Shown here piece by piece: positions 33,201-49,470 of a stretch of 64,000 nucleotides of DNA. Within the stretch, counting starts at the first letter, position 1. Each line of letters begins with the position of its first letter. The position numbers and the translations under genes are program-made. Source of the DNA: an uncultured Verrucomicrobiota bacterium (lineage in GTDB: Bacteria > Verrucomicrobiota > Kiritimatiellia > CAIQIC01 > Lenti-01); assembly GCA_937872095.1 (NCBI GenBank), contig CALMNW010000034.1, positions 20,107-84,106 on the forward strand, given 5' to 3'. Under the pieces are notes generated by a model that made no database searches, was not told where the DNA came from, and saw only the letters and a list, made by a program, of their open reading frames with translations.

Positions 33201-36200
33201 TGTTCCCCGAAGAGCCGTTGTTCCCCGAACTGGCGTATGCCGGCACCGCCGCCGACGGCGAGGTGGAAGACTACCTCTGGCATTTGGCTGGCCTCGGCGA
33301 CTACGTTTGGTACGACGTGAACGGCGATGGCATCCAAGACGTCGGCGAACCGCCGATCGTCGGCGTGCGCGTGTTCCTCGATCTGAACGACGATGGCGTC
33401 TGGCAGGCCGCCGAACCGGCCGCGACCACCGACGCCGACGGGCTCTACGGCATCGGTGGGCTGATTGCCGGCACCTATGTCGTCCGGGTGGATACCAACA
33501 CCTTGCCGGTCGGCGTGTTGCCCACCTACGACTACGACGGCATCGGCACGCTGCATGTCGCTTCCGTGGACGTCGCCCAGTTGGATCAATTCTTCGACGA
33601 GGCCGATTTCGGCTATCTGCCGCCGGTGGACATCGGCGATCGGGTGTGGTTCGACGCCAATCGCGACGGCATCCAGAACGCCGGCGAGACCGACAACTTC
33701 ATCGGCATTCCGGTCGCCCTGCTGGACAGCAACGGGACCATCGTCGCCCAGACCGTAACCGACGACAACGGCTTGTACCTGTTCGAAGACATGCCTGCGC
33801 AAACCTATTTCCTGCGGTTCGATCTGGCCAGCATCAGCACGAACGAGAACGTCAGCACCTACAAGGTCGGCAGCGACGACGAAGTCGACAGCGACGCGAT
33901 CATCGGCAACGTGGGCGATTACGCCTGGACCGCCGCCGTCGTTCCCGTCGCGGGCGAATCCCTGCTGACGGTCGATCTGGGCATCACCACGCGCGGTTCG
34001 ACGCGCGCCGACCTCGCGGAAGTCTGGGGCGAATGGGTCGATGGGCAGGGCCGCGTCGCTTGGCGCACGGCGGCGGAATTCGGCACGGCGGGATTTTTTG
34101 TCTGGCGCATCGACCCGGCCTCGGGCGAGGAAACGCGGCTGAACCATCTGCTGGTGCCCTCGGCCTTCCAGGAAGGGGGCGCCACGTATGGGCTGGTGGA
34201 TCCCGCCGCCCGCGAAGACGAAGAAGGCGCCTATCGGATCGAAGAGGTGGAATTGTCGGGAGAAATCGTCGGTCTCGGTTCGCGTTCGGTGCGATTCGAC
34301 GCGCCGGCGCCGGCAGCCAAGTCCACGCGCGATGCCCGGGTCGCCAAGCCGATCGTGCAAGCGGTCCTTCCCAAGGCGTCGCAAGGCCCTTCGTCCGTGT
34401 TGAAAGTGCAAGCGGAGACGGAAGGGCTGTATGGCGTGGAATTGCAGGCGATCGCCGACGGCATGGGTCTTGCGCTTGAAAGCGTGCAGGCGCTGGCCGA
34501 GGCCGGATCGCTGAAGATCACGGAGCAAGCCCGTACGGTGCCGGTCAGCTACGATGCGGCCCGCGGGCGTCTGTTGTTCCATGCCAAGGCGCCCGATCGC
34601 AATTGGTATTCGCATGCCGATGCCTATCTGATTTCGGCGGGCGAGGGGCTGGCCATGCCGCAGCGGGAGCCGGATGCGGCGGCCGGTGCTTCGGTCTTTC
34701 CCGTGACGCTCCATTTCGAGGAGAACCTCTTCCTGTTCAACATGAACCGGATGCCGGACGATTTCTACTTCTGGGTCGGCGTGGTCAGCGGAACGAACGA
34801 CCTGCTGGATCCGATCTTCCCATTGGATCTGAACGGATACGCCGGCGGCGACATGCGCCTGAAAGTGCGCCTGATGGGGTGGTCCAGCACGACCAACGCC
34901 CCGGACCACCATGCCGAATTCTATTTCAACGGAACCTTGGCGGGCGACGTCGCCTTCGACGGGCAGGACGTCGCCGAAACCGAAATGACGATCCCGGCCG
35001 GCACGATATCGGACGGAATCAATGAGCTGCGGGTGCATGGCCGGATGCCGGAAGACCAAAGCCACAGCTTCTTCGTGGTAGACTGGGTGGAGGCTTCGTT
35101 CGACCGCCAGTTGGCGCCGGGAACGATTCCCGCGCCGTTCGCCGCTGCCGGCGCGTCTTCGATATCCGCGCAGGCTTTCGCCGAACCGATCGCGTTGGCC
35201 TTGGATGCAGCCGGAAATCCGACGCGGATCGCCGACGAATCCGGCGGCTTGCCATCCAGGGCCTGGACGGTGGCGCCGGCCGAAGACCGCTACGAAGTGC
35301 TCGAGGCGAACGACGTGCCGCTGTTGGTTCCGAAACCGGCGGCGGCCGATGCCTGGTTCCTGTCGGAGACGAACGCCGTCGACTATCTGGTGATCGCTCC
35401 GCGCGAACTGGCTCCGGCCGCGCAGGAATTGGCGGATTATCGGGCGGGACAGGGACTGCGTTCCGGCGTGGCGGTTTTCGAAGACGTGTGCGACCTGCTG
35501 GCCGGCGGCGTGCGCACCCCGGAAGCGATTTCCGGCTTGTTGCGGTATGCGGCGTCGACGTGGGCGGCTTCGCCCCGGATGGTGCTGCTGGCGGGCAGCG
35601 GGCACTACGATTATCTGGGGGTGAACACCAGCGAGGCCAACCATTTGCCGCCTTTGCTGGTCCAGATGCCGGTCGGCGTATGCGCATCGGACGCTTTGTT
35701 GGCGGATACGGGCGGGGACGAACTGCCGGATGTCGCGATCGGTCGATTGCCGGCCCGCACCGAAGCGGAGTTGGCCGCCATGATCGCGAAAATCAAGGCC
35801 TACGAGGCCGAATTCGGCGCGGAGTGGCAGAACCAATTGGTGCTGGTGGCCGACAACGCCGATCCGGCGGGTTATTTCGCCGCCGCGAACGAGCGGTTGG
35901 CGGAGCTGGTGTCCGCGCCCTATTCCGTGGCCGAGCGCATCGAATTGGATACGATGGATCTGGACCTTGCCCGTGCGGATCTGCTGGGCTGGTTCAATTC
36001 CGGCGCGGGATTCATCAACTACGTCGGGCACGGAAGCATCAAGACCCTCGCCGCCGAAAACCTTCTGGCGGCAACCAACGTCGATGAAATGGTCGCGACG
36101 GACCGTCCGTCCGTTGCGGTGACCTTGACCTGCTTGGCGGCGCGTTACGAAGTGCCGGCGGTGGAGAGCTTGGGCGAGCGGCTCATGCAGCGGGAACAGG

Positions 36201-39200
36201 GCGGAGCGGTCGCCGTGCTGGGGCCCTCGGGCCTTTCCCAGAACGCGCCGGCGACGGAATTGGGCGAGGCGTTCTATCGGACCATCCTGCAAGACGGGAT
36301 GGGCGAACTGGGCATGGCTTTTCTGCGCGCCCGCCGTTCGCTGCCCGCGAGCCTGTTCTCCAAAGACACGATCGCGGTCTACAATTTGCTTGGGGATCCG
36401 GCCCTGCGCATCGCGGGGAACGATCCGGCCGCCGCGGCGAAGCTTCCGGCCCAGATCTTCCTGCAAGACCTTGCGCAGACCTGCGACGGCACTCCGCGCG
36501 CCGTTTCGGCCGCGACGGAACCGGCTGGCCTGGCGGTGCGCATCACCTACGACGGCCATGCCGTGGCGCCGACGGCGGTCGGCTCCTATGCGGTGGTCGC
36601 GACGATCGCGACGGCCGATTACGAGGGAACCGCCGCGGGGACGCTGGTGGTCTCGAAGGCGGCAGCGGCGGTGTCGTTGACCGATCTCGAGCAGATCTAC
36701 GATGGTACGCCGAAGACGCCCGCCGCGACGACGGAACCGGCTGGTTTGGCCGTGGAATTCACGTACGACGGAGAGGCGACGCCGCCGACGGCGGCCGGCA
36801 CGTACGCCGTCGTCGCCACCGTGGCCGATGCCCAATGGGCGGGCGTGGCCACGGGCCTGCTGACGGTGGCCAAGGCGCCGGCGACGGTGCTGCTGGCCGG
36901 TCTGGCCCAAGTTTTCGACGAAACTCCGAGAATTGCGACAGCCACCACCGTGCCGGAAGGATTGTCCGTCGAAGTCCGCTACGACGGCTCGGAAACGCCT
37001 CCGGTCGGCGCCGGCAGCTACGTGGTCACGGCCGTGGTGGACGATCCCAACTTCGAAGGCATGGCCTCCGACGTGTTGACGGTATCCAAGGCCTCGGCGA
37101 CGGTCGTCTTGGGCAGTTTGGCCCAGACCTACGATGGCCGGCCCAAATACGCGACGGCGACCACCGCGCCCGGCGAACTGGCCGTCGATTTCACGTACGC
37201 CGGCTCGGCGCGAGCGCCCGTTGCCGCCGGCAGCTATGCCGTGGTTGGAACCGTGAGCGATCCCAACTGGCAGGGATCGGCTGCCGGGACGCTGGCCATC
37301 GGCAAGGCGGACCAGACGATCCAATTTGCCTCGATCGCCGACCAGATCACGACCGCCGCGGTCGAATTGTCCGCCACGGCGTCCAGCGGGCTGCCCGTGT
37401 CGTTCGCCGTCGTTTCCGGTCCGGCCGTTCTGCTGGGCGGAACAAGTCTTTCCTTCTCGGGTCCGGGGACGGTCGTCGTGGCCGCCCGGCAGGGCGGAAA
37501 CGAAAACTGGAATGCGGCTCCGGAAGCAACGCAAGTGTTCAACGTCGTGCCGGTCGTGCTGAGCAGCACCCGCGTTCTCGTGCGCGAAAACGGGGAGGGG
37601 CGTTTCTTCGTGAAGCTCTCGCAAGCCCCCGCCGCCAATACGACCGTCACGGTGGCCCGTTGCGCGGGCAGCGAAAGCCTTTCCGTGGCGAGCGGCGCCG
37701 AGTTGGTCTTCAAGGCGTCGAATTGGGATGCGTGGCAACCCGTGACGCTGGCCGCGGATCAAGATGCGAACGGCAGCGACGAGACGGCCACCTTCCGCGT
37801 GTCGACGGCCGGAGCGGCGGATCGGCAGTTGGAGGCCGTCGCGTTGGATGGCGACGCCGGAGAGAATCTGGCCTCGCCGGCGCGGGGAACCGCCATTTCC
37901 GGGACCCGCGGCTATTTCCTGCCGCTGGCGATCGACGGCATCCACGCGTCCCGCACCAATTACGCCTATACGATCTGGAGCAATCCGTCGCCCGGCACGA
38001 TGATTCTGGATTTGCAGGGAATCACGACGGTGTCGCGCCTGCGGTTGTTGAATTGGGATTGGAGTTTCCGTTCCCACCAATACATGCTGGAGTCGTCGGA
38101 GGACGGCGAAGATTGGTCTCTCCTGGTCGATGCCCGGTCGGGCGAGCATCGCGGCTGGGAAGACTGGGTGGTGGATGACACGCCGGCCCGGTATTTGCGC
38201 TTCACGGGGACGTCCAATTCCGCGAATACCGCCGTGTGCATTGCCGAATGGGAAGTGTATGGTCCCACCGGTTCGACCCCGCGGCCGGTTTGTTCGGCCG
38301 TCGACGTATCCGTCCGCGAAGCGGGCGAAGGCCGGTTCTTCGTGCGCCTGAACCAGGCGCCCGAGTCGAACGTCGTGGTCGGAGTGGCATGCGCCGCGGA
38401 ATCCGCCGGTCTGTCCGTGAAGAGCGGGCAAGCCTTGACCTTCAAGCCTTCGAACTGGAACGTTTGGCAGCCGGTCGTGCTCGCGGCGGAAGAAGACGCC
38501 AACGCCGAAGACGAGACGGCGTCGTTCCGCGTTTCGCTTTCGGGCGCGGCGGATCGCTACGTGAAGGCAACCGCGCTGGACGACGACATCGGGGAGAACG
38601 TGGCTCTGGCCTCGAGCGGGACTTCGATCTCGGGCTCGCGGGGCTATCTCTTGGGGGCGGCCATCGACGGAACGCACCTGTCGAGCACCAACTATGCCTT
38701 CGTGGTTTGGCCGGGCTCGATGACCCTGGATCTGCAAGGCGAGGTGGTCGTTTCGCGGGTACGGCTGTTGAACTGGGACTGGACCCTCCGGTCCCACCGC
38801 TATCGGATCGAGGCTTCGCTGGACGGCGCGAACTGGTCGGTGTTGGCGGATGCGAGCGAAGGCGAACACCGCGGTTGGGAAGATTGGCCGGTCGCCGACC
38901 AGCGGATTCGGTTCCTGCGGTTTACCGGCCTATACAATTCCGCGAATTCCGCCGTGTGCATCGCCGAATGGGAGGTCTACGGCACGCGCACGCAGCGGTC
39001 CGAACTGGAGGTGTCGGCAACGAACGTCAACGTGCGCGAGGCGGGTGAAGGTCGCTTCTTCGTGCGGCTGGATCGCGCTCCGGCGGGAGACGTCGCGGTC
39101 GCGGTGGCGCGCGTTTCGGGCGATTCGGCCATTTCGGCGGAAGACGGGGCGACGCTGACCTTCAAGCCGTCGAATTGGAACGTCTGGCAGGCCGTGACGC

Positions 39201-40120
39201 TGGTGGCGCAAGAGGATGAAAACGCCGCTGGCGAAACCGCGCTCTTCCGGATTTCGGCGCCGGACGCGCAGGATCGATTCGTGGAGGCCGCCACGCTGGA
39301 CGACGATATCGGCGAGAATCTGGCCTTGGCTTCTAACGGCGCCCGGATTTCCGGGACGCGGGCTTATTTGACGGCGCTGGCGATCGATGGGCAGCATCTG
39401 TCCCGCGCGAATTACGGCTACGCGGTCTGGACGAACGAACCGCCCGGGGCGATGACGCTGGATCTGGGCGCGGCGCGGTCCGTTGCGCGGGTGCGCCTGC
39501 TGAACTGGGACTGGAATTTGCGTTCTCACCGCTATCGGATCGAAACCTCGGAGGACGGGCTGGTTTGGTCGGTGCTGGCGGATGCGAGCACAGGCGAGCA
39601 CCACGGCTGGGAAGATTGGGCGGCAGACGGCCGCGCGATCCGCTATCTGCGCCTGACGGGCCTGTACAATTCCGCGAATTCCGCCGTCTGCATCGCCGAA
39701 TGGGAAGTGTACGGCGCGGCCCCGGCGGCAGCGGCCAGCGCGGCGGCGGTTAACGTCGTCGAGGATCCGTTCCCGCTGACGATCGTGACGAGCGACGACG
39801 GGCCGGACTACACCAACGGCTGGGCGGCCGTGGACGGCGATACGAATACCTGCTGGATTGGCCGGGCGGGCGCCGGCGGCTGGTACATCGCCGTCGGCTA
39901 CGACGCCGTCTGGCACATGACCAATCTCGTGGTGGATTTGGCCGAAGGTTCGGCGACGCAATTCCAATGCCTGCATAGCCTGGATGCCGTGAACTGGCAG
40001 GAGTGGCCGACGGAAAAGGATGAAGATTCCGTCGACATGAGCTATCTGTGGATTCTGTTCCCCGCCGATGGTCCGGCGGCCCCGGAACCCCGCGTGATTG
40101 AAATCCGGCCCCAGCAATGA
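27254..40120 (+). CDS. Giant secreted multidomain protein (about 4290 aa): signal peptide, ~16 SdrD-B/CnaB-like repeats, C25 (gingipain-like) cysteine peptidase domain, 4 MBG repeats, 3 near-identical discoidin-containing repeats plus a terminal discoidin domain
   Basis: Signal peptide MNIRSSWCSRQFLLVAALAVAGISGPARA|GNP; GTG at 27242 is an alternative start. Repeated GDxVWxDxNxDGxQ...GYYxFxNL units run to about 34 kb. C25 catalytic motifs NYVGHGS (His) and TLTCLAA (Cys) lie near 36.0-36.2 kb. MBG-like YDGTPK...AGTYAVVATV units lie at 36.45-37.3 kb. Three F5/8-type-C-like repeats end in CIAEWEVYG. A single 12.9-kb ORF. No PEP-CTERM tail. Confidence 0.85.
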   Translation: MNIRSSWCSRQFLLVAALAVAGISGPARAGNPDGDLRVEIVTAYNLVVDSNAESPSTYAPKSAYIGAKFCNDGTAPLTNVWAYIGDLAAGTPGTYPSRAHPGLVGPLPGGEFALTHEGGTMGATDATRYVGTIDPGECVTVYWLVSYPQLDENGDAVWGPSVKPDDDLWMEYDVWATAQQGAAYYQADDSQTLTCRNEISAMANKIWPNGANKVPQEYQDLLQQYVPLWTNTSAVAEPGAVLRTEGIWYDLGNVGDGFDNDGDLVPDRNAWLQPVGDPDIFDPSCFRMVRTYVMIIVKLNDGTEQVIVTEDQLYFTQIPANNRGAVGYVMYEFVAIGSGCVSTLTPYQEVASGFDNEKFNGDYGAPGQTLTGGTSLLAIAKSADPIVTRPGSNIAYTVTYTNSGPDPSGRPDIGLPVVVQDSIPTGTVYVAGSATAANVLPGGVSSYEVHYSTNHGLTWSLSEPAVATNVTDVQWWLSDPLPAGGAGTVRFTVKIANPWPFPSPIVPNTAGLSFGNTTPFMWAHAQTLLLGNNALGDTVWRDDGAGGGLLGNQLQEGGETGITGVTVRLYYDLDGDGTGDFLFATTNTGANGYYTFTNLPDGHFTVVVETTNSHIPFGYTPTTPTSFSIPLDPARTNVNPVVNWTADFGFAPALTLIKTHTSTNAVREGQLISYNLTVSNNLPGNGTGSGSPATYYAWASSGGADYKNTEWVNYSNAFYPPGPDGLYTSNQFAGPTTVLSLTNFTVGAQLGTVTNVSLVMPIQMVPPIGGDDTVTIEVRTLSPSTIRFSQTYLATSLVSGVWTVPRTGNYAWTWADFDSNAVVTLSAKKNSGGTAGGWILLDAVGFKIESDQTVGVAGDTTTLDPVPLVDRYDPAKLQFVSAQPPESSVETDPTGTIYWDNVGPIYPGGTSTVAVTFKLLEPPGNTNTVVTNTTWVTNAYFTGGAHANNATSSVVVTQFPAATVGDYVWRDLNGDGIQNETNMGIANVAVSITPPAGIDLGRGAGLAITNWTDASGYYLFESIPATGVYTVRVVTATLPGGIGTQTYDEDAVKDSTHAVYLDIYAAPASTNNLHLTTDFGYTLASAIEGTIWHDYDRGQESYREAGEDWMTNVTVYLCASPSPCGPGASIATNVTTTNGYFRFTGNFDGTYTVFVATNSGMLSNGSWHVSFDTDGTNTANYAAVTVPLGGVGRADFSYFRTGPYRIGDTLFYDWNGDGAQDVASEEGIPDVTVWLYEDANSNGVVDAATDALVATTVTTTNGYYVFTNLFATNTYLVMVDRADPDLPASCHVTADPWGALDARSVVTIVNADNFDQDFGFQPYGSGAIGDTVWLDRNADGIQLGTQEPGLPDVEVRLYVDFDGNGDYVLLRTTNTDANGLYLFDELPDGDYRVVVDDADADLPVDAYGNVYYPSTAVSFDVEISGGNTYLDADFGFAPYGAIGDTVFWDLNRNGDQDFNDPGVPGVDVYLYADANGNGIYDTGETLLATETTDATGFYVFSGLLPDDYVVVVETASGPLAGTDQTADPQSDGLACDDPLNVVPCDDQCGWSLAPAQIFMGADFGYAPRGVIGDTVWVDANDNGLRDAGELGIPYVDVILYSNGVAIATNTTDADGIYGFSGLVDFSNYGVRVATNDVDFPAGLTNTWTADGTFDNYTTNIVMSGGAVTSIGGYPCTDCDLNVDFGYRYAGNNSLSGTIGLDAPTYDGLMNDLNPSGPGPGESPYAGVPVTLYLWNDDGDGIIEAGETTQLGSTVTDANGDYAFTGLPNGDGDDKYVVASAAPESYLTLTTTNGSIAGVTVFSTTNLQGYAVSARLAVSVAPSITNMDFAYASQKSYDYGDLPDSYGTLLADGARHVVATVPDLYLGAGVDTESNGQPSAGADGDDLAGTDDEDGVVQLTNAIWTVGAAGGSVEVTVGAGSGWLLGYIDFNGDGDFVDAGEMIASQAVSATGGNGAGVYTNSFTIPAGTFSATSSTPLYARFRLFPEEPLFPELAYAGTAADGEVEDYLWHLAGLGDYVWYDVNGDGIQDVGEPPIVGVRVFLDLNDDGVWQAAEPAATTDADGLYGIGGLIAGTYVVRVDTNTLPVGVLPTYDYDGIGTLHVASVDVAQLDQFFDEADFGYLPPVDIGDRVWFDANRDGIQNAGETDNFIGIPVALLDSNGTIVAQTVTDDNGLYLFEDMPAQTYFLRFDLASISTNENVSTYKVGSDDEVDSDAIIGNVGDYAWTAAVVPVAGESLLTVDLGITTRGSTRADLAEVWGEWVDGQGRVAWRTAAEFGTAGFFVWRIDPASGEETRLNHLLVPSAFQEGGATYGLVDPAAREDEEGAYRIEEVELSGEIVGLGSRSVRFDAPAPAAKSTRDARVAKPIVQAVLPKASQGPSSVLKVQAETEGLYGVELQAIADGMGLALESVQALAEAGSLKITEQARTVPVSYDAARGRLLFHAKAPDRNWYSHADAYLISAGEGLAMPQREPDAAAGASVFPVTLHFEENLFLFNMNRMPDDFYFWVGVVSGTNDLLDPIFPLDLNGYAGGDMRLKVRLMGWSSTTNAPDHHAEFYFNGTLAGDVAFDGQDVAETEMTIPAGTISDGINELRVHGRMPEDQSHSFFVVDWVEASFDRQLAPGTIPAPFAAAGASSISAQAFAEPIALALDAAGNPTRIADESGGLPSRAWTVAPAEDRYEVLEANDVPLLVPKPAAADAWFLSETNAVDYLVIAPRELAPAAQELADYRAGQGLRSGVAVFEDVCDLLAGGVRTPEAISGLLRYAASTWAASPRMVLLAGSGHYDYLGVNTSEANHLPPLLVQMPVGVCASDALLADTGGDELPDVAIGRLPARTEAELAAMIAKIKAYEAEFGAEWQNQLVLVADNADPAGYFAAANERLAELVSAPYSVAERIELDTMDLDLARADLLGWFNSGAGFINYVGHGSIKTLAAENLLAATNVDEMVATDRPSVAVTLTCLAARYEVPAVESLGERLMQREQGGAVAVLGPSGLSQNAPATELGEAFYRTILQDGMGELGMAFLRARRSLPASLFSKDTIAVYNLLGDPALRIAGNDPAAAAKLPAQIFLQDLAQTCDGTPRAVSAATEPAGLAVRITYDGHAVAPTAVGSYAVVATIATADYEGTAAGTLVVSKAAAAVSLTDLEQIYDGTPKTPAATTEPAGLAVEFTYDGEATPPTAAGTYAVVATVADAQWAGVATGLLTVAKAPATVLLAGLAQVFDETPRIATATTVPEGLSVEVRYDGSETPPVGAGSYVVTAVVDDPNFEGMASDVLTVSKASATVVLGSLAQTYDGRPKYATATTAPGELAVDFTYAGSARAPVAAGSYAVVGTVSDPNWQGSAAGTLAIGKADQTIQFASIADQITTAAVELSATASSGLPVSFAVVSGPAVLLGGTSLSFSGPGTVVVAARQGGNENWNAAPEATQVFNVVPVVLSSTRVLVRENGEGRFFVKLSQAPAANTTVTVARCAGSESLSVASGAELVFKASNWDAWQPVTLAADQDANGSDETATFRVSTAGAADRQLEAVALDGDAGENLASPARGTAISGTRGYFLPLAIDGIHASRTNYAYTIWSNPSPGTMILDLQGITTVSRLRLLNWDWSFRSHQYMLESSEDGEDWSLLVDARSGEHRGWEDWVVDDTPARYLRFTGTSNSANTAVCIAEWEVYGPTGSTPRPVCSAVDVSVREAGEGRFFVRLNQAPESNVVVGVACAAESAGLSVKSGQALTFKPSNWNVWQPVVLAAEEDANAEDETASFRVSLSGAADRYVKATALDDDIGENVALASSGTSISGSRGYLLGAAIDGTHLSSTNYAFVVWPGSMTLDLQGEVVVSRVRLLNWDWTLRSHRYRIEASLDGANWSVLADASEGEHRGWEDWPVADQRIRFLRFTGLYNSANSAVCIAEWEVYGTRTQRSELEVSATNVNVREAGEGRFFVRLDRAPAGDVAVAVARVSGDSAISAEDGATLTFKPSNWNVWQAVTLVAQEDENAAGETALFRISAPDAQDRFVEAATLDDDIGENLALASNGARISGTRAYLTALAIDGQHLSRANYGYAVWTNEPPGAMTLDLGAARSVARVRLLNWDWNLRSHRYRIETSEDGLVWSVLADASTGEHHGWEDWAADGRAIRYLRLTGLYNSANSAVCIAEWEVYGAAPAAAASAAAVNVVEDPFPLTIVTSDDGPDYTNGWAAVDGDTNTCWIGRAGAGGWYIAVGYDAVWHMTNLVVDLAEGSATQFQCLHSLDAVNWQEWPTEKDEDSVDMSYLWILFPADGPAAPEPRVIEIRPQQ
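28858..33990 (+). repeat. Tandem array of ~16 diverged SdrD-B/CnaB-type (Ca-binding, carboxypeptidase-regulatory-like) domain repeats inside the giant gene
   Basis: Recurring protein motif G-D-[TY]-V-[WF]-x-D-x-N-x-[DN]-G-x-[QR]-[DN]...G-[YI]-Y-x-F-x-[NG]-L every ~100 aa. Diverged at nucleotide level. Confidence 0.6.
37552..39715 (+). repeat. Three tandem, highly similar ~725-nt repeats (each a beta-sandwich 'RFFV[KR]L' module plus a discoidin domain) inside the giant gene
   Basis: Repeat starts at about 37552, 38286 and 39006. Long identical nucleotide runs occur, for example tacaattccgcgaattccgccgt[cg]tgcatcgccgaatgggaagtgtacggc in copies 2 and 3. Protein copies are roughly 65-75% identical. 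Confidence 0.7.
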
Positions 40121-40184
40121 CGAGGATGAAAAACTTGTCGCTGGCCGCAGGAAGGACTAGGATCGATCGCAATAGGAGATTGCC

Positions 40185-40601
40185 ATGACGGACAAGAAAC
40201 AGATGAAATACGAAAAACCCGTCAGCATCGACATGGGGCGCGTGGCGCCCATCCTCGGCGATACGTGCAGCATCGGAGACGGCGCGGCGGATTGTCCCGC
40301 CGGTATGAACAACGCCATCGTGGCGGTTTGTTCGCCTGCAGGCACCGGTGCGGACAACGATTGCCGCACGGGGTCCGGCGCCGGCACCTTTTGCTGGCCG
40401 ACCGGTTCCAATGCCCAGGTGTATTGCCTGGCGGGATCGGGCTTCGGCAGCAGTCCCGAGCCTTCCGGACTTACGATCCAGAGCGACTCCATCGACGCCG
40501 CGCCGGCCGCGACAAGTCTTTTCAGTCCCGAGCCGGATACCGGCACCGTGGAACCGACCGACGACAAGCCCGATGCTGGCGGCGGGACGGCATTCCCGTA
40601 A
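40185..40601 (+). CDS. Small Cys-rich protein (138 aa) with no Sec signal peptide; six regularly spaced Cys then a Pro/Ser/Ala/Gly/Asp-rich tail; candidate modified peptide/protein
   Basis: RBS aggaga 8 nt upstream of the ATG. Charged N-terminus MTDKKQMKYEKPVSIDMGRVAPILGD with no hydrophobic h-region. Cys at 28/37/49/60/70/81, spacing 9-12, each in a small-residue context (DTC, ADC, AVC, NDC, TFC, VYC). Low-complexity acidic tail. Confidence 0.5.
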   Translation: MTDKKQMKYEKPVSIDMGRVAPILGDTCSIGDGAADCPAGMNNAIVAVCSPAGTGADNDCRTGSGAGTFCWPTGSNAQVYCLAGSGFGSSPEPSGLTIQSDSIDAAPAATSLFSPEPDTGTVEPTDDKPDAGGGTAFP

Positions 40602-40616: not shown

Positions 40617-41306
40617 GTGCGGAGATGCGCGGGGGATTCCGCGACCTGCGGTCCGAAGGATGCCGGGCCTATGTTGAATTCCGATATGTCAGCGGAGTCG
40701 TCCAGCCTATCCGGTACAAAACCCATTTGGTTGTCCCGTGTTTCCGCTCCTTGCCGCGGGGAGAGCATGTGGGGGACCTTGGAGGAAGGGGATTGCCTTT
40801 GGGTGATTCCCGTTTTGTTCGATGCCCTGCAACCCGGCGACGTCGTGGCGTTCGAATTCGGGGGTAAAGTCGTCGCCCACCGGATCGTAGGCCGGGAAGG
40901 CAATGGGTTCGCGACGCAGGGAGATGGCAATGACAATCGGGATTCCACGCCGCTGACCGCCGAGCGACTGATCGGCAAAGTGGTGGCACGGGAACGCAAG
41001 GGCGTTCGCAAAGCCGTGATCGGTGGGAATCGCGGCCGGCAGCGGGCGCGGATCTTGCGGTCCATCTGCTGGATTCGCCACTCCTCCGCGTTCTGGACGG
41101 TGCGCTTGCTTCGCACGCTGCCCGTCCGCCACGTTGTTTCCTGGTTATGGCGGCCGGTCATCCTTTCCGTTGGCTTTATGTCGCCGCAGGGGGGAATCAC
41201 CAAGTTCATCCATCAGGGACGGACCGTGGCCATCTGGAATCCGCAATCGCGGCGCTGGAACTGCCGAATGCCCTACGATTTGATTATATCCCCGCCGGTC
41301 CAATGA
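40617..41306 (+). CDS. S26-family signal-peptidase-I-like protein (SipW/ER-type, S26B-like) lacking the usual N-terminal membrane anchor
   Basis: GESMWGTL (Ser box), VVAHRIVG (His box) and QGDGNDNRDSTPL (GDNN-type box) occur in the canonical S26B order and spacing. No hydrophobic segment precedes the Ser box. The start is uncertain (possible internal Met). Confidence 0.5.
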   Translation: MRRCAGDSATCGPKDAGPMLNSDMSAESSSLSGTKPIWLSRVSAPCRGESMWGTLEEGDCLWVIPVLFDALQPGDVVAFEFGGKVVAHRIVGREGNGFATQGDGNDNRDSTPLTAERLIGKVVARERKGVRKAVIGGNRGRQRARILRSICWIRHSSAFWTVRLLRTLPVRHVVSWLWRPVILSVGFMSPQGGITKFIHQGRTVAIWNPQSRRWNCRMPYDLIISPPVQ

Positions 41307-42544
41307 ATAGCGAACGCGCCACGGATTCCGGTTGCGAGATGGATTTGCTGTGCGATTGCATCGCGCCGAATCGATCCGCGTCGCTCAAGGGGGACCTGCT
41401 CCGCACGCGGTCGGTGGATTGGCCGCGGTTTTTCGCGCTGGCCACCAACCACCACGTGATCCCGTTGGTCTACCAAGCCTTGAAATCCATGGCGGACGGC
41501 GGAGCGGCCATTCCTCCCGAATGGCTGGCCCAGTTTCGAACGCGATATCTGTCCATTGCCGCGTACAACGTCCGGGCCATGGCCCTGCTGCACCGGCTCC
41601 AGCAACTCATGGAAGCGCAGGGCATCCGGCTCGTTCCCGTCAAAGGTCCTGCTTTGGCGATGTTGGCTTTTGGAGACGTCGCATCGCGGCAGTTCGAGGA
41701 TTTGGATCTCATCGTGCGTCGGGAAGACATGTTGCGCGCCGTTGCGGCACTGGAGCGGGACGGCTACGCGTTGCGAGAGCTCTCGATCACGGCCGACCGA
41801 AAACGCTATCTGGCCACGCTGCAGAACTGGTCGTTGGAAAAACCGGGAAAACCACCGCTGGATCTCAAGCCGGTTCTGATTTCCCATGCGCTGATCGGTC
41901 CGGAATCGGCGGACTACATGGCTTCCGCTTGCCGCCGGCTGCCGATCGACGACAAGCGCGTTCTTTGGGCGCCCGGTCCCGAAGCCATGTTGCTGGCGAC
42001 GTGCATGGATGGGGCGAACGAAATGTGGTTCAAGCTGTCGGCGGTGGCCGACGTGGCCGCATTGTTGGCGGCGCATGCGGATCGGGATTGGCACGGATTT
42101 CTCGCCGAAGCGGCGCGCTGGGGACAACGGAGAAGCCTGCTGGTCGGCGCTGGCGTGGCGGAAGAACTGCTCGGGTGCGACTTGCCCTCGGCGTTCCGGG
42201 AAGGGGATCGTCGCGATCCGGCGGCGCGGCGTCTGGCGCGGCAAGCGGCGGAACGCCTGCGGGCGCTGGCTCCCCGCCATGCGATCGTCGGCCGGCAAAC
42301 CTGGTTCGCGCTCCAAACCCGGGAACGGGCGCGCGACCGCTTGCGTTTTGGACAGCGCCTGCTGTTTGTTCCAGGCGCGTTTGAACTCGCGGCCTTGCCG
42401 TTGCCGGGCGTGCTCTATCCCGTGCATTCGCTGTTGCGTCCCTTCCGCTTGGCCTGGGACGTGCTTGTGCGGAAAGGCCGGCAGCGCCGGTTGACGATTC
42501 AGCCGACAGGTGGGAAATTGATGGGTAACGCGAAAGACGCATGA
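41303..42544 (+). CDS. Nucleotidyltransferase-family protein (resembles the 'uncharacterised nucleotidyltransferase' PF14907 family seen in RiPP/lasso-peptide clusters)
   Basis: ATGA overlap with the peptidase-like gene. Core IRLVPVKGPALAMLAFGDVASRQFEDLDLIVRREDMLRAVAALERDGY shows the K-G...R-x-x-x-D-L-D-L-[LI]-V...G-Y pattern of the family. Confidence 0.45.
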   Translation: MNSERATDSGCEMDLLCDCIAPNRSASLKGDLLRTRSVDWPRFFALATNHHVIPLVYQALKSMADGGAAIPPEWLAQFRTRYLSIAAYNVRAMALLHRLQQLMEAQGIRLVPVKGPALAMLAFGDVASRQFEDLDLIVRREDMLRAVAALERDGYALRELSITADRKRYLATLQNWSLEKPGKPPLDLKPVLISHALIGPESADYMASACRRLPIDDKRVLWAPGPEAMLLATCMDGANEMWFKLSAVADVAALLAAHADRDWHGFLAEAARWGQRRSLLVGAGVAEELLGCDLPSAFREGDRRDPAARRLARQAAERLRALAPRHAIVGRQTWFALQTRERARDRLRFGQRLLFVPGAFELAALPLPGVLYPVHSLLRPFRLAWDVLVRKGRQRRLTIQPTGGKLMGNAKDA

Positions 42545-44331
42545 AACCCGAGAACAAGCGATTGTTGCATCTGTGCCAGGCCGTCGGATTGGTCTGGGAG
42601 AGCGCGCGGGGCTGGACGTTGCTCCAAGGCGCGGCGGTCATGGCGCAAGGCTTGTTGCCCATCGCCACGCTCTATTTGACGCGGCGCGTGGTCGATGCCG
42701 TCGGCCAGTTTCTGGCGCAACCTGCGGGCCAGAAAGATCCCTTGCCGCTTTTTACGCTGTTGCCCTGGGTGGCGGGCGTGGCGGTGGCGGGCTGGATTTT
42801 CCGCGCGTGGTCGAACGTGGTGGCCGAGGCGCAGGCCGATGCGGTTTCGGACCACGTGCAGGGCGCGCTGCAGAAAAAATCCACCGAGATCGATATCGCC
42901 TATTACGAGACGTCGACCTACCACAACCAGATGCGCATGGCGCAATCGGAGGCCATGTCGCGGCCCGTGAGTATCGTTCGGAACCTGGCGCAATTGGGAA
43001 GCGGCGCGCTGGTGTTGGGATCGGTAACCGGCGTGTTGTGGCTGTCGCAGGGGTTTTTGCTGCCCGTATTGCTGGCGGCGGCGTTGCCTGGCGCCTTGGC
43101 GCGGGTCCGGAATTCCCGCCAATGGCATGGCTGGCGGGTTCGGCACAGCGAACCGGAGCGACAAGCCGGCTATTTGCACCTGTTGCTGACGTCGTTTCCG
43201 TTCGCGAAAGAAATCCGTCTGCTGGGAACCGGCGGTGAATTGCGCCGGCGGTTCGCGGCCTTGCGCGGCAGTCTTCGCCGGAGCCGATTGGGATTCGTGC
43301 GGCGGCGCGCCGGCACGGAGATCGTGGCCGACGTCGTTTCCGCCTGCGTCGTTCTCGTCGGCCTGGGGCTCATTTATCTGCGGATGGCGGGCAACCGGAT
43401 GACGCTGGGGGACTTGGCCTTGCTCTACGGTGGATTTCAAAAGGGCAAGACGGCCTTCTCGTCGGTCTTGGGCAGTTTGGCCGCGCTCTATGAAGATTCG
43501 CTGTTCATTTCCCATTTCTACGACTTTCTGGGGCTGCCGCAGCGGGTCCATTCGCCGGCCGTGCCCCGGCCGCTTCCGCAACGGATCGAGCAGGGAATTC
43601 GGTTGGAGCACGTCACCTTCCGGTATCCGGGCTGCGCGACGGATGCGCTGAAAGACGTCACGGCGGAAATCCGGGTGGGGGAACATGTGGCGCTGGTCGG
43701 AGAAAACGGATCCGGCAAGACGACGCTCGTGAAATTGCTGTGCCGCCTGTACGACCCCACCGAAGGCCGGGTTCTGCTGGATGGCATCGACATCCGCGAA
43801 TATGCGCTGGAGGATCTGCGCGGCCTGTTCAGCGTCCTGTTCCAGGATTTCGTCCGATATCAGATGACGGCCGAGGAAAACGTCCGCATGGGCCATCTGG
43901 CGGTCCCGCCGGGCGATCCGAGGATTGCCGAAGCCGTTCGCCGGGCCGGAGCCGTTCCCGTGATCGAGCGCTTGCCCCAGGGAAGCCAGACGCCGTTGGG
44001 GAGGCTTTTCAAGGACGGGATGGAACTGAGCGAAGGGCAGTGGCAACGGATGGCGTTGGCCCGGGCTTTCTTGCGGCCGGGACCCATTCTGATGCTGGAC
44101 GAGCCAACCAGTTCCCTGGATGCCAAGGCGGAGCGGGATCTGCTGGAGTCGGTCGCCGCCGGGTTCCAGGGGAAAACCGTCGTGGTGGTCAGCCATCGGC
44201 TTTCGACCGTCCGGATGGCCGATCGCATCTGGGTGTTGTCCGACGGGCGCTTGGTGGAGTCGGGCGGCCACGATGCGTTGGTGCGGGCCGGGGGCGACTA
44301 TGCCCGACTGTTCGCTTTGCGCGCAACATGA
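42541..44331 (+). CDS. ABC exporter, fused permease and ATP-binding protein (type I exporter; no N-terminal C39 peptidase domain)
   Basis: ATGA overlap. Six-helix TMD followed by Walker A GENGSGKTT, signature LSEGQWQRMALARA and Walker B ILMLDEPTSSLD. Confidence 0.85.
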   Translation: MKPENKRLLHLCQAVGLVWESARGWTLLQGAAVMAQGLLPIATLYLTRRVVDAVGQFLAQPAGQKDPLPLFTLLPWVAGVAVAGWIFRAWSNVVAEAQADAVSDHVQGALQKKSTEIDIAYYETSTYHNQMRMAQSEAMSRPVSIVRNLAQLGSGALVLGSVTGVLWLSQGFLLPVLLAAALPGALARVRNSRQWHGWRVRHSEPERQAGYLHLLLTSFPFAKEIRLLGTGGELRRRFAALRGSLRRSRLGFVRRRAGTEIVADVVSACVVLVGLGLIYLRMAGNRMTLGDLALLYGGFQKGKTAFSSVLGSLAALYEDSLFISHFYDFLGLPQRVHSPAVPRPLPQRIEQGIRLEHVTFRYPGCATDALKDVTAEIRVGEHVALVGENGSGKTTLVKLLCRLYDPTEGRVLLDGIDIREYALEDLRGLFSVLFQDFVRYQMTAEENVRMGHLAVPPGDPRIAEAVRRAGAVPVIERLPQGSQTPLGRLFKDGMELSEGQWQRMALARAFLRPGPILMLDEPTSSLDAKAERDLLESVAAGFQGKTVVVVSHRLSTVRMADRIWVLSDGRLVESGGHDALVRAGGDYARLFALRAT

Positions 44332-44347: not shown

Positions 44348-45748
44348 ATGGCCTCCAAACGCCATTTTAATGTGCCGCGGATTGACAGGCAACGGGGAAG
44401 GGTATCAAATGCCGTAATGCGCCCGGTTATACAAAAAGTGCGTAGAGCGGGGATTTATGCCCTTCTATGCTTTGCGGTTCCCGCTTTTGGGGGGCCGGGC
44501 AACGGCATCAACGTTGCCTCGTGGGTGCTGAGTCCCTATCTGGAGTTGAATCTGACCCATGATTCGAACGTCTACAAGGACGGCACGAACGTGATTTCCG
44601 ACGCCTTTTTCGAGCCGGAACTGGGGGTGAGGTTCAGTTCTTCGGCAGAAACCAACACCTTCCTGATCAAGGGCAATCTGTACGTGTCGGATCGGACCTA
44701 CGACACGGAAAGCAACCGCGATTTCATGACGTATGGGGATCACCTGACCTTGCAATTGGGGAACGGGCGCAAATCCCTGTTCGAATTGATCCAGAGCTAT
44801 CGCTTTTTGGACGACAACGACCGGCATGCGTCGGACGTCGAAACGTCCCGCCTTTCCGGCGAAATGGTGGAAGACAGCAACGCGCTGGATCTGGAGCGCG
44901 AACTGCACCAGTTGGGGGCTTCGCTTTCGCGCCGCATGTCGGACAAATTGCATCTGGCGCTGTCCTATCGTTATTCCGGCGTCCATTACCCGAACAAGAC
45001 CCACGAGCGTTTGGCCCGCAAGCAGGAAGAATACGTGCCGGAAGGATTGGATCTGGACGGGCACATCTGGCAATTGGAAGGCGCGCTGGGATTGACGGAT
45101 AAAACCGACGTCATGCTGACGCTGCGCCAGGGCTTGCAGTACCAGGAAAAAACGGATGAGCCCGCCGAACTGACGACGCTACGGCTGGGGTTGCAGACGC
45201 AAGGCGCCCAAAAACTGGTGTACCACGTCGGGGTCGGCTTGGAATACTATGCGCGCCCGTCCCAGACGCAGTTCGACGAGGCGGACGTCGACGAAAGCGA
45301 CGTCCAGGTCGATGAAGAGGGCGTCCGCAGCGACAACGACCAGATTACGTTCAACTACAATGCGGCGGCGGACTGGTTCATCACGGAAAAATTGACCTTC
45401 CGCATCGGCGGCTACAACGGCACGGAATTCTCCTCGTTCTACGAGCAAAACGGCATGGAATTCATCAGCGCTTGGGCCGGGGTGGGATACCGCTGGAAGC
45501 CCAGCTGGATCTTTTCCCTGCGCGGGATTTATCGCTACGACGACTATCTGGACCCGGTCACGCACGAAGGCATTACCTTGGATCGCAAGGACACGCGCGT
45601 CGAAGGCCATGGGCGCATCGACTACATCGCGTCGGGCAATTTCCTCCGGATCTATTTGGAGGCGGTCTACGACGAAGTGGATTCCAATTTCGACTTCGTG
45701 GATTATGTCGATGAGCGCCTCATCCTCGGCGCCCTCATCCAGTACTAG
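44348..45748 (+). CDS. Probable outer-membrane beta-barrel protein
   Basis: Alternating amphipathic beta-strand pattern throughout. C-terminal aromatic residue (...LILGALIQY). A signal-peptide-like segment MRPVIQKVRRAGIYALLCFAVPAFG begins at 44417 and may be the true start. A TTGACA-containing promoter-like stretch lies at ~44387. Confidence 0.5.
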   Translation: MASKRHFNVPRIDRQRGRVSNAVMRPVIQKVRRAGIYALLCFAVPAFGGPGNGINVASWVLSPYLELNLTHDSNVYKDGTNVISDAFFEPELGVRFSSSAETNTFLIKGNLYVSDRTYDTESNRDFMTYGDHLTLQLGNGRKSLFELIQSYRFLDDNDRHASDVETSRLSGEMVEDSNALDLERELHQLGASLSRRMSDKLHLALSYRYSGVHYPNKTHERLARKQEEYVPEGLDLDGHIWQLEGALGLTDKTDVMLTLRQGLQYQEKTDEPAELTTLRLGLQTQGAQKLVYHVGVGLEYYARPSQTQFDEADVDESDVQVDEEGVRSDNDQITFNYNAAADWFITEKLTFRIGGYNGTEFSSFYEQNGMEFISAWAGVGYRWKPSWIFSLRGIYRYDDYLDPVTHEGITLDRKDTRVEGHGRIDYIASGNFLRIYLEAVYDEVDSNFDFVDYVDERLILGALIQY

Positions 45749-45759
45749 GAGGCGAAAAC

Positions 45760-46320
45760 ATGAATGCAAATTGGATCAAATGGACGGCGCTGGCGGTTTG
45801 CCTGTCCGGCCTGAACGCACAGGCGGCATTCGATCGGCCGACGCGGGCGGAACTCAAGGCCGCGGCGGAGGATCTTTCGAAGGTGGTCGAATTGCTGCAG
45901 GATGCCTCGATCGACCAGGCGGCGGAAACCGCCAAGGACGTGGTGATCGAAATCGTCAAACTGGATCTGGACCGCGTCGAGCGCGACAGTCGGTCTTCGT
46001 CTCTGGTCGGATACCTGTTCATGACCGTGCAGCGAGACGACTGGAAAGCGTTGGCGATCTCGTTCGGCCGCATGGTGGCGGCCAGTCCGACGGCCAGCAT
46101 GGATCCCTCGTTGCTGTCGGCGCTTCAGCGCGCGATCATCGAGGTGTGCGGGGTGGAGGTCGCGAGCGAATTCGGGAATGCCTACAATCTAGCCATGTTG
46201 ACGATCGCCGGAGCGCCCGGCGGCGGCAAGAACGTGCCGCCCCAGCCGCCGCCGCCGCCCGTGGCGTTGCCGTTGCGTCCGCCCGTGGCGACGCTCTACG
46301 AAGGGCAGCAACTGCCGTAG
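45760..46320 (+). CDS. Secreted hypothetical protein with a Pro-rich C-terminus
   Basis: Signal peptide MNANWIKWTALAVCLSGLNAQA|AF. RBS aggagg 7 nt upstream. 186 aa. No recognisable domain. Confidence 0.45.
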   Translation: MNANWIKWTALAVCLSGLNAQAAFDRPTRAELKAAAEDLSKVVELLQDASIDQAAETAKDVVIEIVKLDLDRVERDSRSSSLVGYLFMTVQRDDWKALAISFGRMVAASPTASMDPSLLSALQRAIIEVCGVEVASEFGNAYNLAMLTIAGAPGGGKNVPPQPPPPPVALPLRPPVATLYEGQQLP

Positions 46321-46622: not shown

Positions 46623-48065
46623 ATGATGGTCACAAAGCGCCGTATCACTAGCAAGATCAAACAGCTGCGGGCGGAGCGATACATGGGCTGGTCTATCCGC
46701 AAGATGAAGATACTGGATAGTGGCATCGTTTTTTGGCAGTCGGACAACAACCTTCGCCCACCGCATCGGGAGCGAATGAGCTGGGAAGACATTGGCCAAG
46801 CCAAGGCCCATATCCAAGCGATGTCCACAGCGGTTAAAAACGAAGGGCGGGGTGCCTATGCCCTGACGCATGCTCAGAAAATCGAAGCTAAAGCGGCCAT
46901 AGATAAGCTCGGGGACAAGGTGAAGTTCGCGGACCTCCTGGCTTTCTGGGAACAGCATCATTCAGATGGCAAGTCTATAACCTTGGCCGAGATGCTAAGG
47001 GGATGGTTGGCCGAGGCGCAAGAAGATGGGCTAAAGCCTACGAGCATACGGCAGAACAAGCAGCGGCTTAACGCATTCATTGGGGAGGTCGGCGAAGAAA
47101 CGCCCTGCGCACTAGTAACCGGCGAAGTGGTAGAAGGATTTCTCGGCCAGCGCCCGTGCGGTAAGCCTACAAAAATTAGCTGGCGGAAAACGCTACATGC
47201 TTTCTTTGAATACTGCATCGAAAAGCAGGCCGTGTCCAGCAACCCCATCATCAAGTCACGCCGGGGGCGCCGGAGGCGCAAGAGAATCGAAGCCGCCACA
47301 AAGATTCCCGAGTTCATGCCGGTCAAGACGGTTAACAATTTCATGGCGAAGGCTGAAGAGCTTCATCCTGAGAGCGTACCTGCATTGGCGATCATGTTTT
47401 TTGCCGGCCTCAGGCCCTTCGAGGTGTCAGCGCAGTATGGTCTAGAAACTTCCGAACTGACCAGTGCTAGAGACACAACGGCGGCGGCGAACAAACGGCT
47501 GAAGAATGCAAAACCCGGAAGTCAGGCTGAGCGCGCAGCCAGGATCGCAGTAGATGATGCACGGCAAAAACTCAAAGCGTTGATGGAATCTAGTAGAAAG
47601 AAGAGAGGAAAAGCTCCGGCGACAATGGGTGGACTGGACTGGACTAATGTCAACCTTGCAAAGAAGTTCATACGTGTCCTACCGGAGACATCAAAAACAG
47701 GTGCGGGGCGTCTGGTTGACATCAGCAATAACCTCCTCCTGTGGCTTACGAAGTACTACAGGGCTTGCGGACCAGTCGCTCCATCACCGGTAACACTTAT
47801 TCGTCATAGACGGGACATCATGAAGAAAGCTGGCATCAAGAAGTGGCTCCCAGATGTGGCGCGGCACTCCTATGCAACCTATCATTTCGCCATGTACGAA
47901 AACCAGGACAAGCTGCAAGCGCAGATGGGGCACTCCGGAAAGGCCTACATCTTGACTGAGCACTACAAAGGTTTGACGACGAAGGAAGAGGCCGAGGAGT
48001 ATTGGAACATCAACCCGGCAAATCCGTCGGGCGGGGTCATACAACTTGCCACGAAGGGGGCATAG
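46623..48065 (+). CDS. int: Tyrosine-type site-specific recombinase/integrase
   Basis: The C-terminal catalytic region has the family order ...LRPFE (Arg box)...ARHSYATYHFAMYEN (His/Arg box)...HSGKAYILTEHYKG (Tyr nucleophile region). The N-terminal SAM-like core-binding domain is ~150 aa. Confidence 0.8.
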   Translation: MMVTKRRITSKIKQLRAERYMGWSIRKMKILDSGIVFWQSDNNLRPPHRERMSWEDIGQAKAHIQAMSTAVKNEGRGAYALTHAQKIEAKAAIDKLGDKVKFADLLAFWEQHHSDGKSITLAEMLRGWLAEAQEDGLKPTSIRQNKQRLNAFIGEVGEETPCALVTGEVVEGFLGQRPCGKPTKISWRKTLHAFFEYCIEKQAVSSNPIIKSRRGRRRRKRIEAATKIPEFMPVKTVNNFMAKAEELHPESVPALAIMFFAGLRPFEVSAQYGLETSELTSARDTTAAANKRLKNAKPGSQAERAARIAVDDARQKLKALMESSRKKRGKAPATMGGLDWTNVNLAKKFIRVLPETSKTGAGRLVDISNNLLLWLTKYYRACGPVAPSPVTLIRHRRDIMKKAGIKKWLPDVARHSYATYHFAMYENQDKLQAQMGHSGKAYILTEHYKGLTTKEEAEEYWNINPANPSGGVIQLATKGA

Positions 48066-48068
48066 GAC

Positions 48069-49001: not shown

Positions 49002-49027
49002 AAGACTGAACAAATTCCAGAACATTT

Positions 49028-49060
49028 AGGCGGCTTTTTACAAGCCGCCATTTTTGTTGT
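49028..49060 (+). terminator. Rho-independent terminator
   Basis: ggcggcttt-ttac-aagccgcc stem-loop followed by atttttgttg, directly after the 48069..49001 stop. Confidence 0.55.
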
Positions 49061-49260
49061 CCGGCGCGGTATGGGCAATAATCACGCGTAGTACTGACAC
49101 CTTTCCCGGATAATTAGCGGTCAGGATCGCTGAACATTTTGAGGCATTCGAATTTTTGCGCTTGTCGGCATCGTGTTTCCTGTTCATCGCGCGGCACGAA
49201 AGGTCAGCAGTTGAGCTGACTGGGCAGGTCGCTACACCGAAAGGTGGGAAGGCGGAATAG

Positions 49261-49470
49261 ATGACTACGAAGGAAACGGCGACGACGAGACTGAATGGAT
49301 GGACGCGGATCGGCGGGGTGCTGGAGCAGGTTCCGGTGAGCAAGCGGACACTTCTGCGTTGGCAGGCGCAAGGTCGAATCCCGGTTACAAAAGTAGGGCG
49401 CGTGACCCTGTACCGGCTGTCCGACATCGAGAAGATGTTGAGCAAGTTGACCGTCCGGGCCATTGGATAA
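49261..49470 (+). CDS. AlpA/excisionase-family helix-turn-helix DNA-binding protein
   Basis: 69 aa. LEQVPVSKRTLLRWQAQGRIPVTKVGRVTLYRLSDIEKML matches the HTH_17/excisionase pattern (...RTLyRwi..G.lP..k.G.r..yr..dl...l). A GGA-rich RBS lies 8 nt upstream. Confidence 0.6.
   Translation: MTTKETATTRLNGWTRIGGVLEQVPVSKRTLLRWQAQGRIPVTKVGRVTLYRLSDIEKMLSKLTVRAIG

Follow-up and report, generated by a model that had tools for sequence, protein, structure and literature searches.

The window analyzed here is a 64,000-nucleotide stretch of contig CALMNW010000034.1 (positions 20,107 to 84,106) from an uncultured Verrucomicrobiota bacterium of the class Kiritimatiellia, and the gene of interest is an open reading frame (ORF) at 40185-40601 that encodes a small cysteine-rich protein. 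A sequence-only reading of this DNA had put the protein forward as a candidate substrate of radical S-adenosylmethionine (radical-SAM) enzymes with SPASM domains. The same gene cluster carries relatives of the ScmE, ScmD, ScmF, and ScmC proteins of the SynChlorMet (SCM) cassette, and the protein is probably their precursor peptide. The precursor gene consists of the following parts.

40174-40178, forward strand: ribosome-binding site AGGAG, 6 nucleotides 5′ of the ATG, as read from the sequence
40185-40601, forward strand: precursor ORF, 138 amino acids
40185-40265, forward strand: leader-like region, residues 1-27 (MTDKKQMKYEKPVSIDMGRVAPILGDT), delimited by conservation among homologs
40266-40445, forward strand: core, residues 28-87, six units of the form C-x2-3-G-x2-3-A-x2-4, delimited by conservation of Cys, Gly, and Ala
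40446-40601, forward strand: acidic Pro/Ser/Thr tail, residues 88-138, with the stop codon, variable among homologs

The six cysteines are residues 28, 37, 49, 60, 70, and 81, which gives spacings of 9, 12, 11, 10, and 11 residues, and the flanks that had been quoted for them (DTC, ADC, AVC, NDC, TFC, and VYC) are present as described. The earlier claims of a good ribosome-binding site and of a protein lacking a hydrophobic signal segment are likewise borne out, the latter by a maximal Kyte-Doolittle mean of 0.97 over 15 residues. So is the description of the tail as acidic and rich in Pro, Ser, and Thr: its 51 residues include nine Asp or Glu, one Lys or Arg, and eight Pro, 25 of the 51 are Gly, Ala, Ser, or Thr, and the protein ends in GGTAFP. 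The string quoted for the 27-residue charged N-terminus has 26 residues, and the first Cys is residue 28. No second copy of the precursor was found in the window, and a scan for promoters and terminators around the gene gave no signal over background.

A search of 5.8 billion proteins returned 113 homologs, all of them unnamed or called "hypothetical," and 99 of these entered the alignment on which the following values rest. Those that carry a taxonomic name come from metagenome-assembled genomes (MAGs) of Kiritimatiellia, Opitutae, and Deltaproteobacteria. Mean pairwise identity is 84% over the leader (residues 1-27), 75% over the core (residues 28-87), and 33% over the tail (residues 88-138), which is often absent. 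The most conserved part of the protein is the leader motif KYEKPVSIDMGRVAPILG (residues 8-25) at 93%, and this motif is kept in relatives from other phyla that are only 30-50% identical overall. Because each Cys column is kept in 98-99 of the 99 sequences and exactly six cysteines occur in 96 of them, the six-Cys pattern is not a product of chance. Six glycines (G31, G40, G53, G63, G74, and G84) and four alanines (A34, A56, A66, and A77) of the core are invariant or nearly so. The cysteines have an invariant Gly at +3 or +4 and an invariant Ala at -3 or -4, and therefore the core can be written as the six units given above. The precursor gene is real and under selection. The suggested check of whether the register and number of cysteines are conserved while the tail varies has accordingly come out in favor of a precursor.

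Members of the family range from 85 to 164 amino acids, and many of them (85-100 amino acids) have no tail. It had been remarked that the protein is larger than classical precursors of ribosomally made peptides with post-translational modifications (RiPPs); this holds mainly for the tailed forms, and because the tailless members are so much shorter, the excess size is mainly the tail. Although otherwise variable, the tail often keeps a G-x-A-F(-P) end, such that 46 of 84 long forms terminate in F or F-x (AFP, GAF), and it may carry a terminal recognition motif. A wider HMMER profile scan of 1.84 billion cluster representatives found about 100 clusters at E ≤ 1e-3, nearly all of them 58-120 amino acids long with the same leader and with 3-10 cysteines in a C-x-x-G-x-x-A repeat. 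Two distant members, P0397 and P0425, sit on contigs of 563 and 2779 bp, respectively, and a radical-SAM gene lies just upstream of P0425. One 1718-residue protein with six stretches matching the core profile (P0428) was rejected as a compositional false positive, being a Cys-free, RTX-like Gly/Asp repeat protein.

Scans of the window precursor against Pfam and NCBIfam gave no match. AlphaFold2, supplied with the 99-sequence alignment, predicts no secondary structure for it (predicted local distance difference test [pLDDT] score 47.8, predicted template modeling [pTM] score 0.16), and a family-profile sequence search of the PDB returned only chance-level matches (E ≥ 0.2). The absence of a predicted fold and of a PDB relative therefore fits a peptide substrate rather than a disulfide-stabilized domain. 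These data bear on the simplest alternative, which is that the gene encodes an ordinary, unmodified Cys-rich protein (secreted and disulfide-rich, metallothionein-like, or Fe-S-binding) that is an incidental neighbor of the cassette. Six cysteines in a Gly-rich sequence, in a protein larger than most RiPP precursors, are what such a protein might look like. Judged as a secreted disulfide-rich small protein, however, the precursor offers neither a hydrophobic N-terminal segment nor a recognizable fold, even with a deep alignment. Moreover, its N-terminus is more conserved than its Cys-rich part, cysteines placed 9-12 residues apart are unlike Fe-S or metallothionein motifs as far as the sequence can be read, and the synteny described below is seen across phyla, whether the search starts from the peptide or from the enzymes. 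We regard this alternative as extremely improbable. The observations that had been named as speaking against a precursor, namely homologs with a secretion signal, a known disulfide-rich fold, or poorly conserved cysteines, were not made: no homolog has a signal peptide, the structure prediction gives no fold, and the cysteines are conserved.

The enzymes of the cassette are encoded upstream of the precursor, as follows.

23129-24553, forward strand: ScmE-like protein with an N-terminal PqqD domain (a RiPP recognition element, RRE), a radical-SAM domain, and a SPASM domain (Pfam PqqD, Radical_SAM, and SPASM; TIGR04250, 390.2 bits against a cut-off of 400)
24550-25125, forward strand: ScmD-like protein of the PqqD family, 191 amino acids (PF05402, E = 1.4e-15, residues 119-184; TIGR04248, 46.2 bits against a cut-off of 100)
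about 25188-26297, forward strand: ScmF-like radical-SAM/SPASM protein (TIGR04251, 335.3 bits against a cut-off of 400; Radical_SAM and SPASM)
26270-26872, forward strand: ScmC-like protein, 200 amino acids, with the P-loop GHSTAGKST (TIGR04249, 33 bits against a cut-off of 125)

The best NCBIfam match of each of these proteins is the corresponding Scm model (TIGR04250, TIGR04248, TIGR04251, and TIGR04249), and relatives of the window ScmE carry the name ScmE at NCBI and JGI. The four genes form a contiguous cassette at 23129-26872 that encodes two radical-SAM/SPASM proteins, a PqqD homolog, and ScmC, with three PqqD-type domains in all, and the E-D-F-C order is the same in all related loci. 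The ORF of ScmF is open from 25014, and 25188 is its likely start. Both of the SPASM enzymes that had been placed upstream of the precursor are present there, but at a distance of 14-17 kb and with a single 12.9-kb gene (27242-40120) in between. The protein at 24550-25125 that had been called a tandem PqqD protein, which is ScmD, has one clear PqqD match at residues 119-184, but its N-terminal half is at best weakly winged-helix-like, with weak helix-turn-helix matches at residues 44-93. The nearest solved relatives of ScmE are the sactisynthase SkfB, PqqE, and the ranthisynthase CteB, and its sub-threshold NCBIfam matches include WgkB, StsB, PapB, and QhpD (TIGR03906, 80 bits).

For ScmC, the family PF27840 (ScmC) is precomputed for a protein (P0234) identical to the one in the window. 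Its AlphaFold2 model has a pLDDT of 89, and every one of its top 12 Foldseek matches in the PDB is an HprK/P catalytic domain (E = 7e-5, probability 1.0, TM-score 0.35-0.51), followed by phosphoenolpyruvate carboxykinases, which share the same fold. By its predicted structure, ScmC is a protein of the HprK/P-type fold, and the model makes it a candidate peptide kinase.

Gene order in other genomes ties the precursor to these enzymes. A peptide-seeded scan of species-representative genomes yielded 22 loci, all from MAGs, and in one Deltaproteobacteria MAG, one CSSED10-310 MAG, one Aminicenantes MAG, and unclassified MAGs, with no giant gene in between, the order is ScmE-ScmD-ScmF-ScmC-peptide. 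In the opposite direction, all four loci found by way of ScmE (51-58% identical to that of the window) have an ORF directly after ScmC that matches the hidden Markov model of the peptide, with E values of 1e-14 to 1e-16. A metagenome scan seeded with ScmC gave 44 loci, from which we counted those with at least 35% ScmC identity and a classifiable downstream region. The peptide follows ScmC directly in 12 of these and the giant gene takes that place in 10, and no clear counter-example was found among the classifiable ScmC-seeded loci. Matches to ScmC at 33% identity or less (L071 and L074-L082) belong to other HprK-like systems, have no such peptide, and lie outside these counts. Taken over all the scans, the precursor stands directly after ScmC in L001, L025-L028, and L029-L032, as well as in the 12 ScmC-seeded loci. 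The proposal that the precursor is a substrate of radical-SAM/SPASM enzymes is hence backed by synteny in both search directions, by its conserved cysteines, and by its variable tail, and we consider it likely that the Scm enzymes of the window act on it.

Some of these loci have peculiarities of their own. In two of the four ScmE-seeded loci, the source annotation had not called the precursor ORF (L029, 13965-14240; L031, 13778-14098), and in L031 an over-extended call for the protease gene overlaps it. A CSSED10-310 MAG (L027) carries two copies of the precursor with different cores, one at 9962-10300 and another some 3 kb further downstream at 12997-13383. In L030 (14773-21443) and L032 (14845-19425), the SCM cassette has beside it an additional group of genes of the radical-SAM, PqqD, methyltransferase, and S24-like kinds, and the group in L030 includes a 664-residue radical-SAM protein to which a ScmC-type domain is fused. 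These genes may form a second, related peptide-maturation cluster.

The SCM cassette already has a predicted precursor, which is described by the NCBIfam model TIGR04252 ("SynChlorMet cassette protein ScmA"; 49 positions, cut-off 35 bits). This is the only family that representatives of the new peptide family match repeatedly at a permissive E-value: 22 of the 99 match it below threshold (best E = 2.9e-6), and none reaches 35 bits. Because of these sub-threshold matches among its relatives, the description that suits the window protein best is that of a putative ScmA-like precursor, divergent and enlarged. The locus shares with the described cassette the E-D-F-C set and order and, after these genes, a small Cys-rich peptide whose leader is of the YEKP type. 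The window protein differs from ScmA in its length of 138 amino acids, in its six repeats, and in the acidic tail that is often found in the family, and the Kiritimatiellia loci differ from the described cassette in having a gene for a giant adhesin between ScmC and the peptide. On balance, we think it probable that the window protein is the ribosomal precursor of a SynChlorMet-type cassette and a divergent, enlarged relative of ScmA. Searches of the literature for SynChlorMet, for the Scm and TIGR accessions, and for Kiritimatiellia RiPPs turned up no relevant paper, and as far as we found, no member of the SCM system has been studied experimentally.

The giant gene and the genes that follow the precursor in the window are listed here.

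27242-40120, forward strand: giant secreted protein, 4292 amino acids (Pfam: eight SdrD_B, Peptidase_C25, four MBG_3, and three F5/8-type-C domains)
40671-41306, forward strand: signal-peptidase-I-like protease (S26; endoplasmic reticulum [ER]/archaeal/SipW type; TIGR02228, E = 1.6e-10, below cut-off; weak Peptidase_S24)
41147-42544, forward strand: NTP_transf_5 (PF14907) protein, an uncharacterized nucleotidyltransferase (PF14907, E = 2.2e-46)
42541-44331, forward strand: ABC exporter with fused permease and ATPase and without a C39 peptidase domain (ABC_tran; MsbA-like and bacteriocin-exporter-like NCBIfam matches, below cut-off)
44417-45748, forward strand: outer-membrane beta-barrel protein (BBP2_2; PF10082, E = 1.2e-6)
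45760-46320, forward strand: 186-residue protein (P186) with a signal-peptide-like N-terminus and a Pro-rich C-terminus (no Pfam or NCBIfam match)

Loci of the Kiritimatiellia type have the same order as the window, with the giant protein, the peptide, the protease, NTP_transf_5, the ABC exporter, the barrel, and P186, and one locus (L003) has the order ABC-peptide-protease-NTP_transf_5-ScmE-D-F-C. The protease gene is always immediately 3′ of the precursor in the loci compared. Its homologs, detected in 33 loci, conserve the motifs G-x-S-M-x-G-T, H-R, and G-D...D at 90% or more, which is the Ser/His/Asp pattern of signal peptidase I of the ER/archaeal/SipW type, and these motifs make it a candidate leader peptidase. 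The NTP_transf_5 gene, whose true start is probably downstream of 41147, is conserved beside the precursor and protease genes, and the ABC exporter is conserved in this module. In Kiritimatiellia-type loci, the barrel gene is kept after the exporter gene, and P186 is the last gene of the conserved module, following the barrel in at least 15 loci with 54-85% identity. In at least 16 peptide-seeded and 10 ScmC-seeded loci of the Kiritimatiellia type, a giant protein is encoded between ScmC and the precursor; other phyla lack it, and there the precursor comes straight after ScmC. It may be a partner in the system or a lineage-specific insertion. What has been computed is a peptide with a leader, a core, and a tail but no predicted fold, genetically coupled across phyla to a cassette, a protease, a nucleotidyltransferase, and an exporter.

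Comparison with known systems suggests what the enzymes might do. The locus encodes a precursor with a leader and a Cys core together with an RRE-bearing radical-SAM/SPASM maturase, which is the genetic criterion for sacti- and ranthipeptides such as freyrasin (PapA/PapB), SCIFF (CteB), StsA (StsB), and subtilosin (AlbA). The freyrasin precursor PapA has six CX3D motifs, which resemble the regularly repeated Cys units of the core studied here. Unlike these systems, the window has a C-x2-3-G-x2-3-A repeat with a period of 10-11 residues and a core of about 60 residues, two maturases along with a separate RRE protein, and an S26-type protease in place of a C39 or other leader peptidase, and its crosslinks are predicted ones. 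A second point of comparison is the gamma subunit of quinohemoprotein amine dehydrogenase, QhpC, a small protein with a cleaved leader that acquires several Cys thioethers from the radical-SAM/SPASM enzyme QhpD and has a dedicated protease and an ABC-type exporter. The likeness lies in the small-protein substrate and in the QhpD match of ScmE noted above, whereas the window has no dehydrogenase partner, a different Cys pattern, a different protease, and an exopolysaccharide (EPS) gene context. By analogy with the Cys-rich substrates of such enzymes, thioethers would be the most likely modification of the core, and we put the chances of this particular chemistry at about even.

The same enzymes invite another view, in which ScmE and ScmF act on the precursor with a different chemistry, such as C-C or C-O crosslinking, epimerization, or Cys oxidation of the kind performed by anaerobic sulfatase-maturating enzymes (anSMEs), and the cysteines serve for metal binding or for disulfides formed after export. 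The weak NCBIfam affinities of the window enzymes are shared with enzymes of diverse reactions (PqqE, MftC, AhbD, NirJ, and anSME), the presence of two different enzymes suggests two different reactions, and the invariant Gly and Ala residues of the repeats could themselves be targets. Yet the cysteines, exactly six in nearly every homolog, are the top-conserved feature of the core, the better matches and solved relatives of ScmE include the thioether formers StsB, PapB, QhpD, SkfB, and CteB, and the core does not contain the C-x-P/A-x-R motif of anSME substrates as read from the sequence. Such other chemistry is unlikely in our estimation, though it is the strongest of the competing explanations.

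The nucleotidyltransferase and ScmC recall the tailoring of lasso peptides. In the pseudomycoidin pathway, the HprK-like kinase PsmK and the nucleotidyltransferase PsmN together phosphorylate a Ser and then add a hexose to the phosphate (PMC6993621). Paeninodin (PadeK) and pseudomycoidin share with the window an HprK/P-fold protein, an uncharacterized nucleotidyltransferase, a PqqD-type RRE, and an ABC exporter. Unlike those pathways, the window lacks a lasso cyclase and a lasso protease, it has core enzymes of the radical-SAM/SPASM type, and the kinase role of ScmC, like any PsmN-like role of the PF14907 protein, is a putative one. This pairing of kinase and nucleotidyltransferase, together with a constant placement in EPS loci, also sets the window system apart from freyrasin, SCIFF, StsA, and QhpC.

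If the precursor is matured by the Scm enzymes, the following sequence of events seems reasonable. ScmD and ScmE would take hold of the leader motif through their PqqD/RRE domains, whereupon ScmE, ScmF, or both might convert the six cysteines to intramolecular thioethers of the sactionine or ranthionine type, with conserved Gly, Ala, Asp, or Asn residues of the repeats as the probable acceptors. ScmC and the NTP_transf_5 protein may then add a phosphate and a further group in the manner of PsmK and PsmN. The S26-like protease would remove the leader near G25/D26, and the ABC exporter and the outer-membrane barrel could release the product.

Several points weigh against this account. All four Scm enzymes of the window score below their curated NCBIfam cut-offs, and the window precursor itself does not match TIGR04252 even at E ≤ 10. 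Thioether chemistry is argued from analogy with related enzymes, the boundary between leader and core and the site at which the protease would cut are provisional, and a precursor model does not account for a tail with a conserved C-terminal AF(P). The parallel with PsmN further presumes that this enzyme belongs to PF14907. In addition, the precursor of the window is 13.3 kb from ScmC, albeit in the same gene cluster, and in two loci no Scm genes can be seen ahead of the peptide. In L033 (3405-9920), housekeeping genes come before the large gene that precedes the peptide, and in L035 (1-9430) they precede the peptide module. Only about 10 kb of upstream sequence is visible in these loci, and the contigs are too short to exclude Scm genes elsewhere, including downstream. 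It may be that the peptide module can occur apart from ScmEDFC, or else that the contigs stop short of the Scm genes. Both loci encode short forms of the precursor (88 and 96 amino acids) with the protease/NTP_transf_5/ABC module.

It is from these gene arrangements that a further alternative draws its force, namely that the peptide works mainly with the protease, NTP_transf_5, and the exporter, for example as a secreted and possibly phospho-glycosylated matrix peptide, and that the Scm enzymes act on the giant adhesin or on a small molecule. In almost all of the loci examined, the peptide is followed by the three module genes, whereas ScmEDFC can be as far as 13 kb away or, in L033 and L035, out of sight, and every locus lies among EPS genes. 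Outside Kiritimatiellia, however, every readable locus has the peptide right behind ScmC and no giant protein, the leader has the character of one bound by an RRE where the cassette supplies three PqqD-type domains, and the contigs of L033 and L035 are incomplete. We therefore hold this arrangement to be very unlikely and retain the interpretation of the protein as the substrate of the Scm enzymes.

The genes around the system speak to its role. Upstream in the window are EPS genes for a Wzy_C protein, glycosyltransferases whose best matches are families of PEP-CTERM/XrtA systems, a polysaccharide deacetylase of the XrtA type, a LegC-like aminotransferase, and a Polysacc_synt_2 protein, and all loci compared lie among EPS genes. 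Because this position is constant, the system probably has a role connected with the cell envelope or matrix rather than with classical bacteriocin biology. Perhaps the mature product is a component of the EPS or cell-surface matrix, a phospho-glycosylated peptide stapled by thioethers, which might serve for instance as a primer or anchor for a phosphate-linked glycan made by ScmC and NTP_transf_5, and in Kiritimatiellia the AF(P) end of the tail might dock to the giant C25/SdrD adhesin. We would rate this picture as quite improbable.

The SCM enzyme families and the ScmA model were already curated, and the window protein is probably a longer, unrecognized relative of ScmA. Together with the roughly 100 similar clusters, the locus defines a precursor subfamily that is missed by Pfam, by the NCBIfam ScmA model, and sometimes by gene callers. 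The cassette is a curated radical-SAM peptide-maturation system of anaerobic, mostly uncultured bacteria that is experimentally untouched so far as the literature we found goes. The locus offers a full parts list for it, with a leader, RRE proteins, two radical-SAM enzymes, an HprK-fold protein, a nucleotidyltransferase, an S26-type protease, and an exporter, and the very regular six-Cys repeat predicts up to six crosslinks. Such a system is unsurprising in principle, yet it provides a clean entry point to unstudied radical-SAM peptide chemistry in an unusual, envelope-associated context.

Beyond P186, the window enters a stretch of lower GC content (0.53-0.56) 3′ of the locus, which holds a gene of the phage integrase family at 46623-48065 and a gene for an 859-residue Toprim-like protein at 49570-52149, on the forward strand. 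No tRNA gene was found between 44000 and 64000 of the window. The related locus L005 has a tRNA-synthetase gene after P186 instead of the integrase/Toprim stretch, and the region at 46623-52149 is probably an integrated mobile element.

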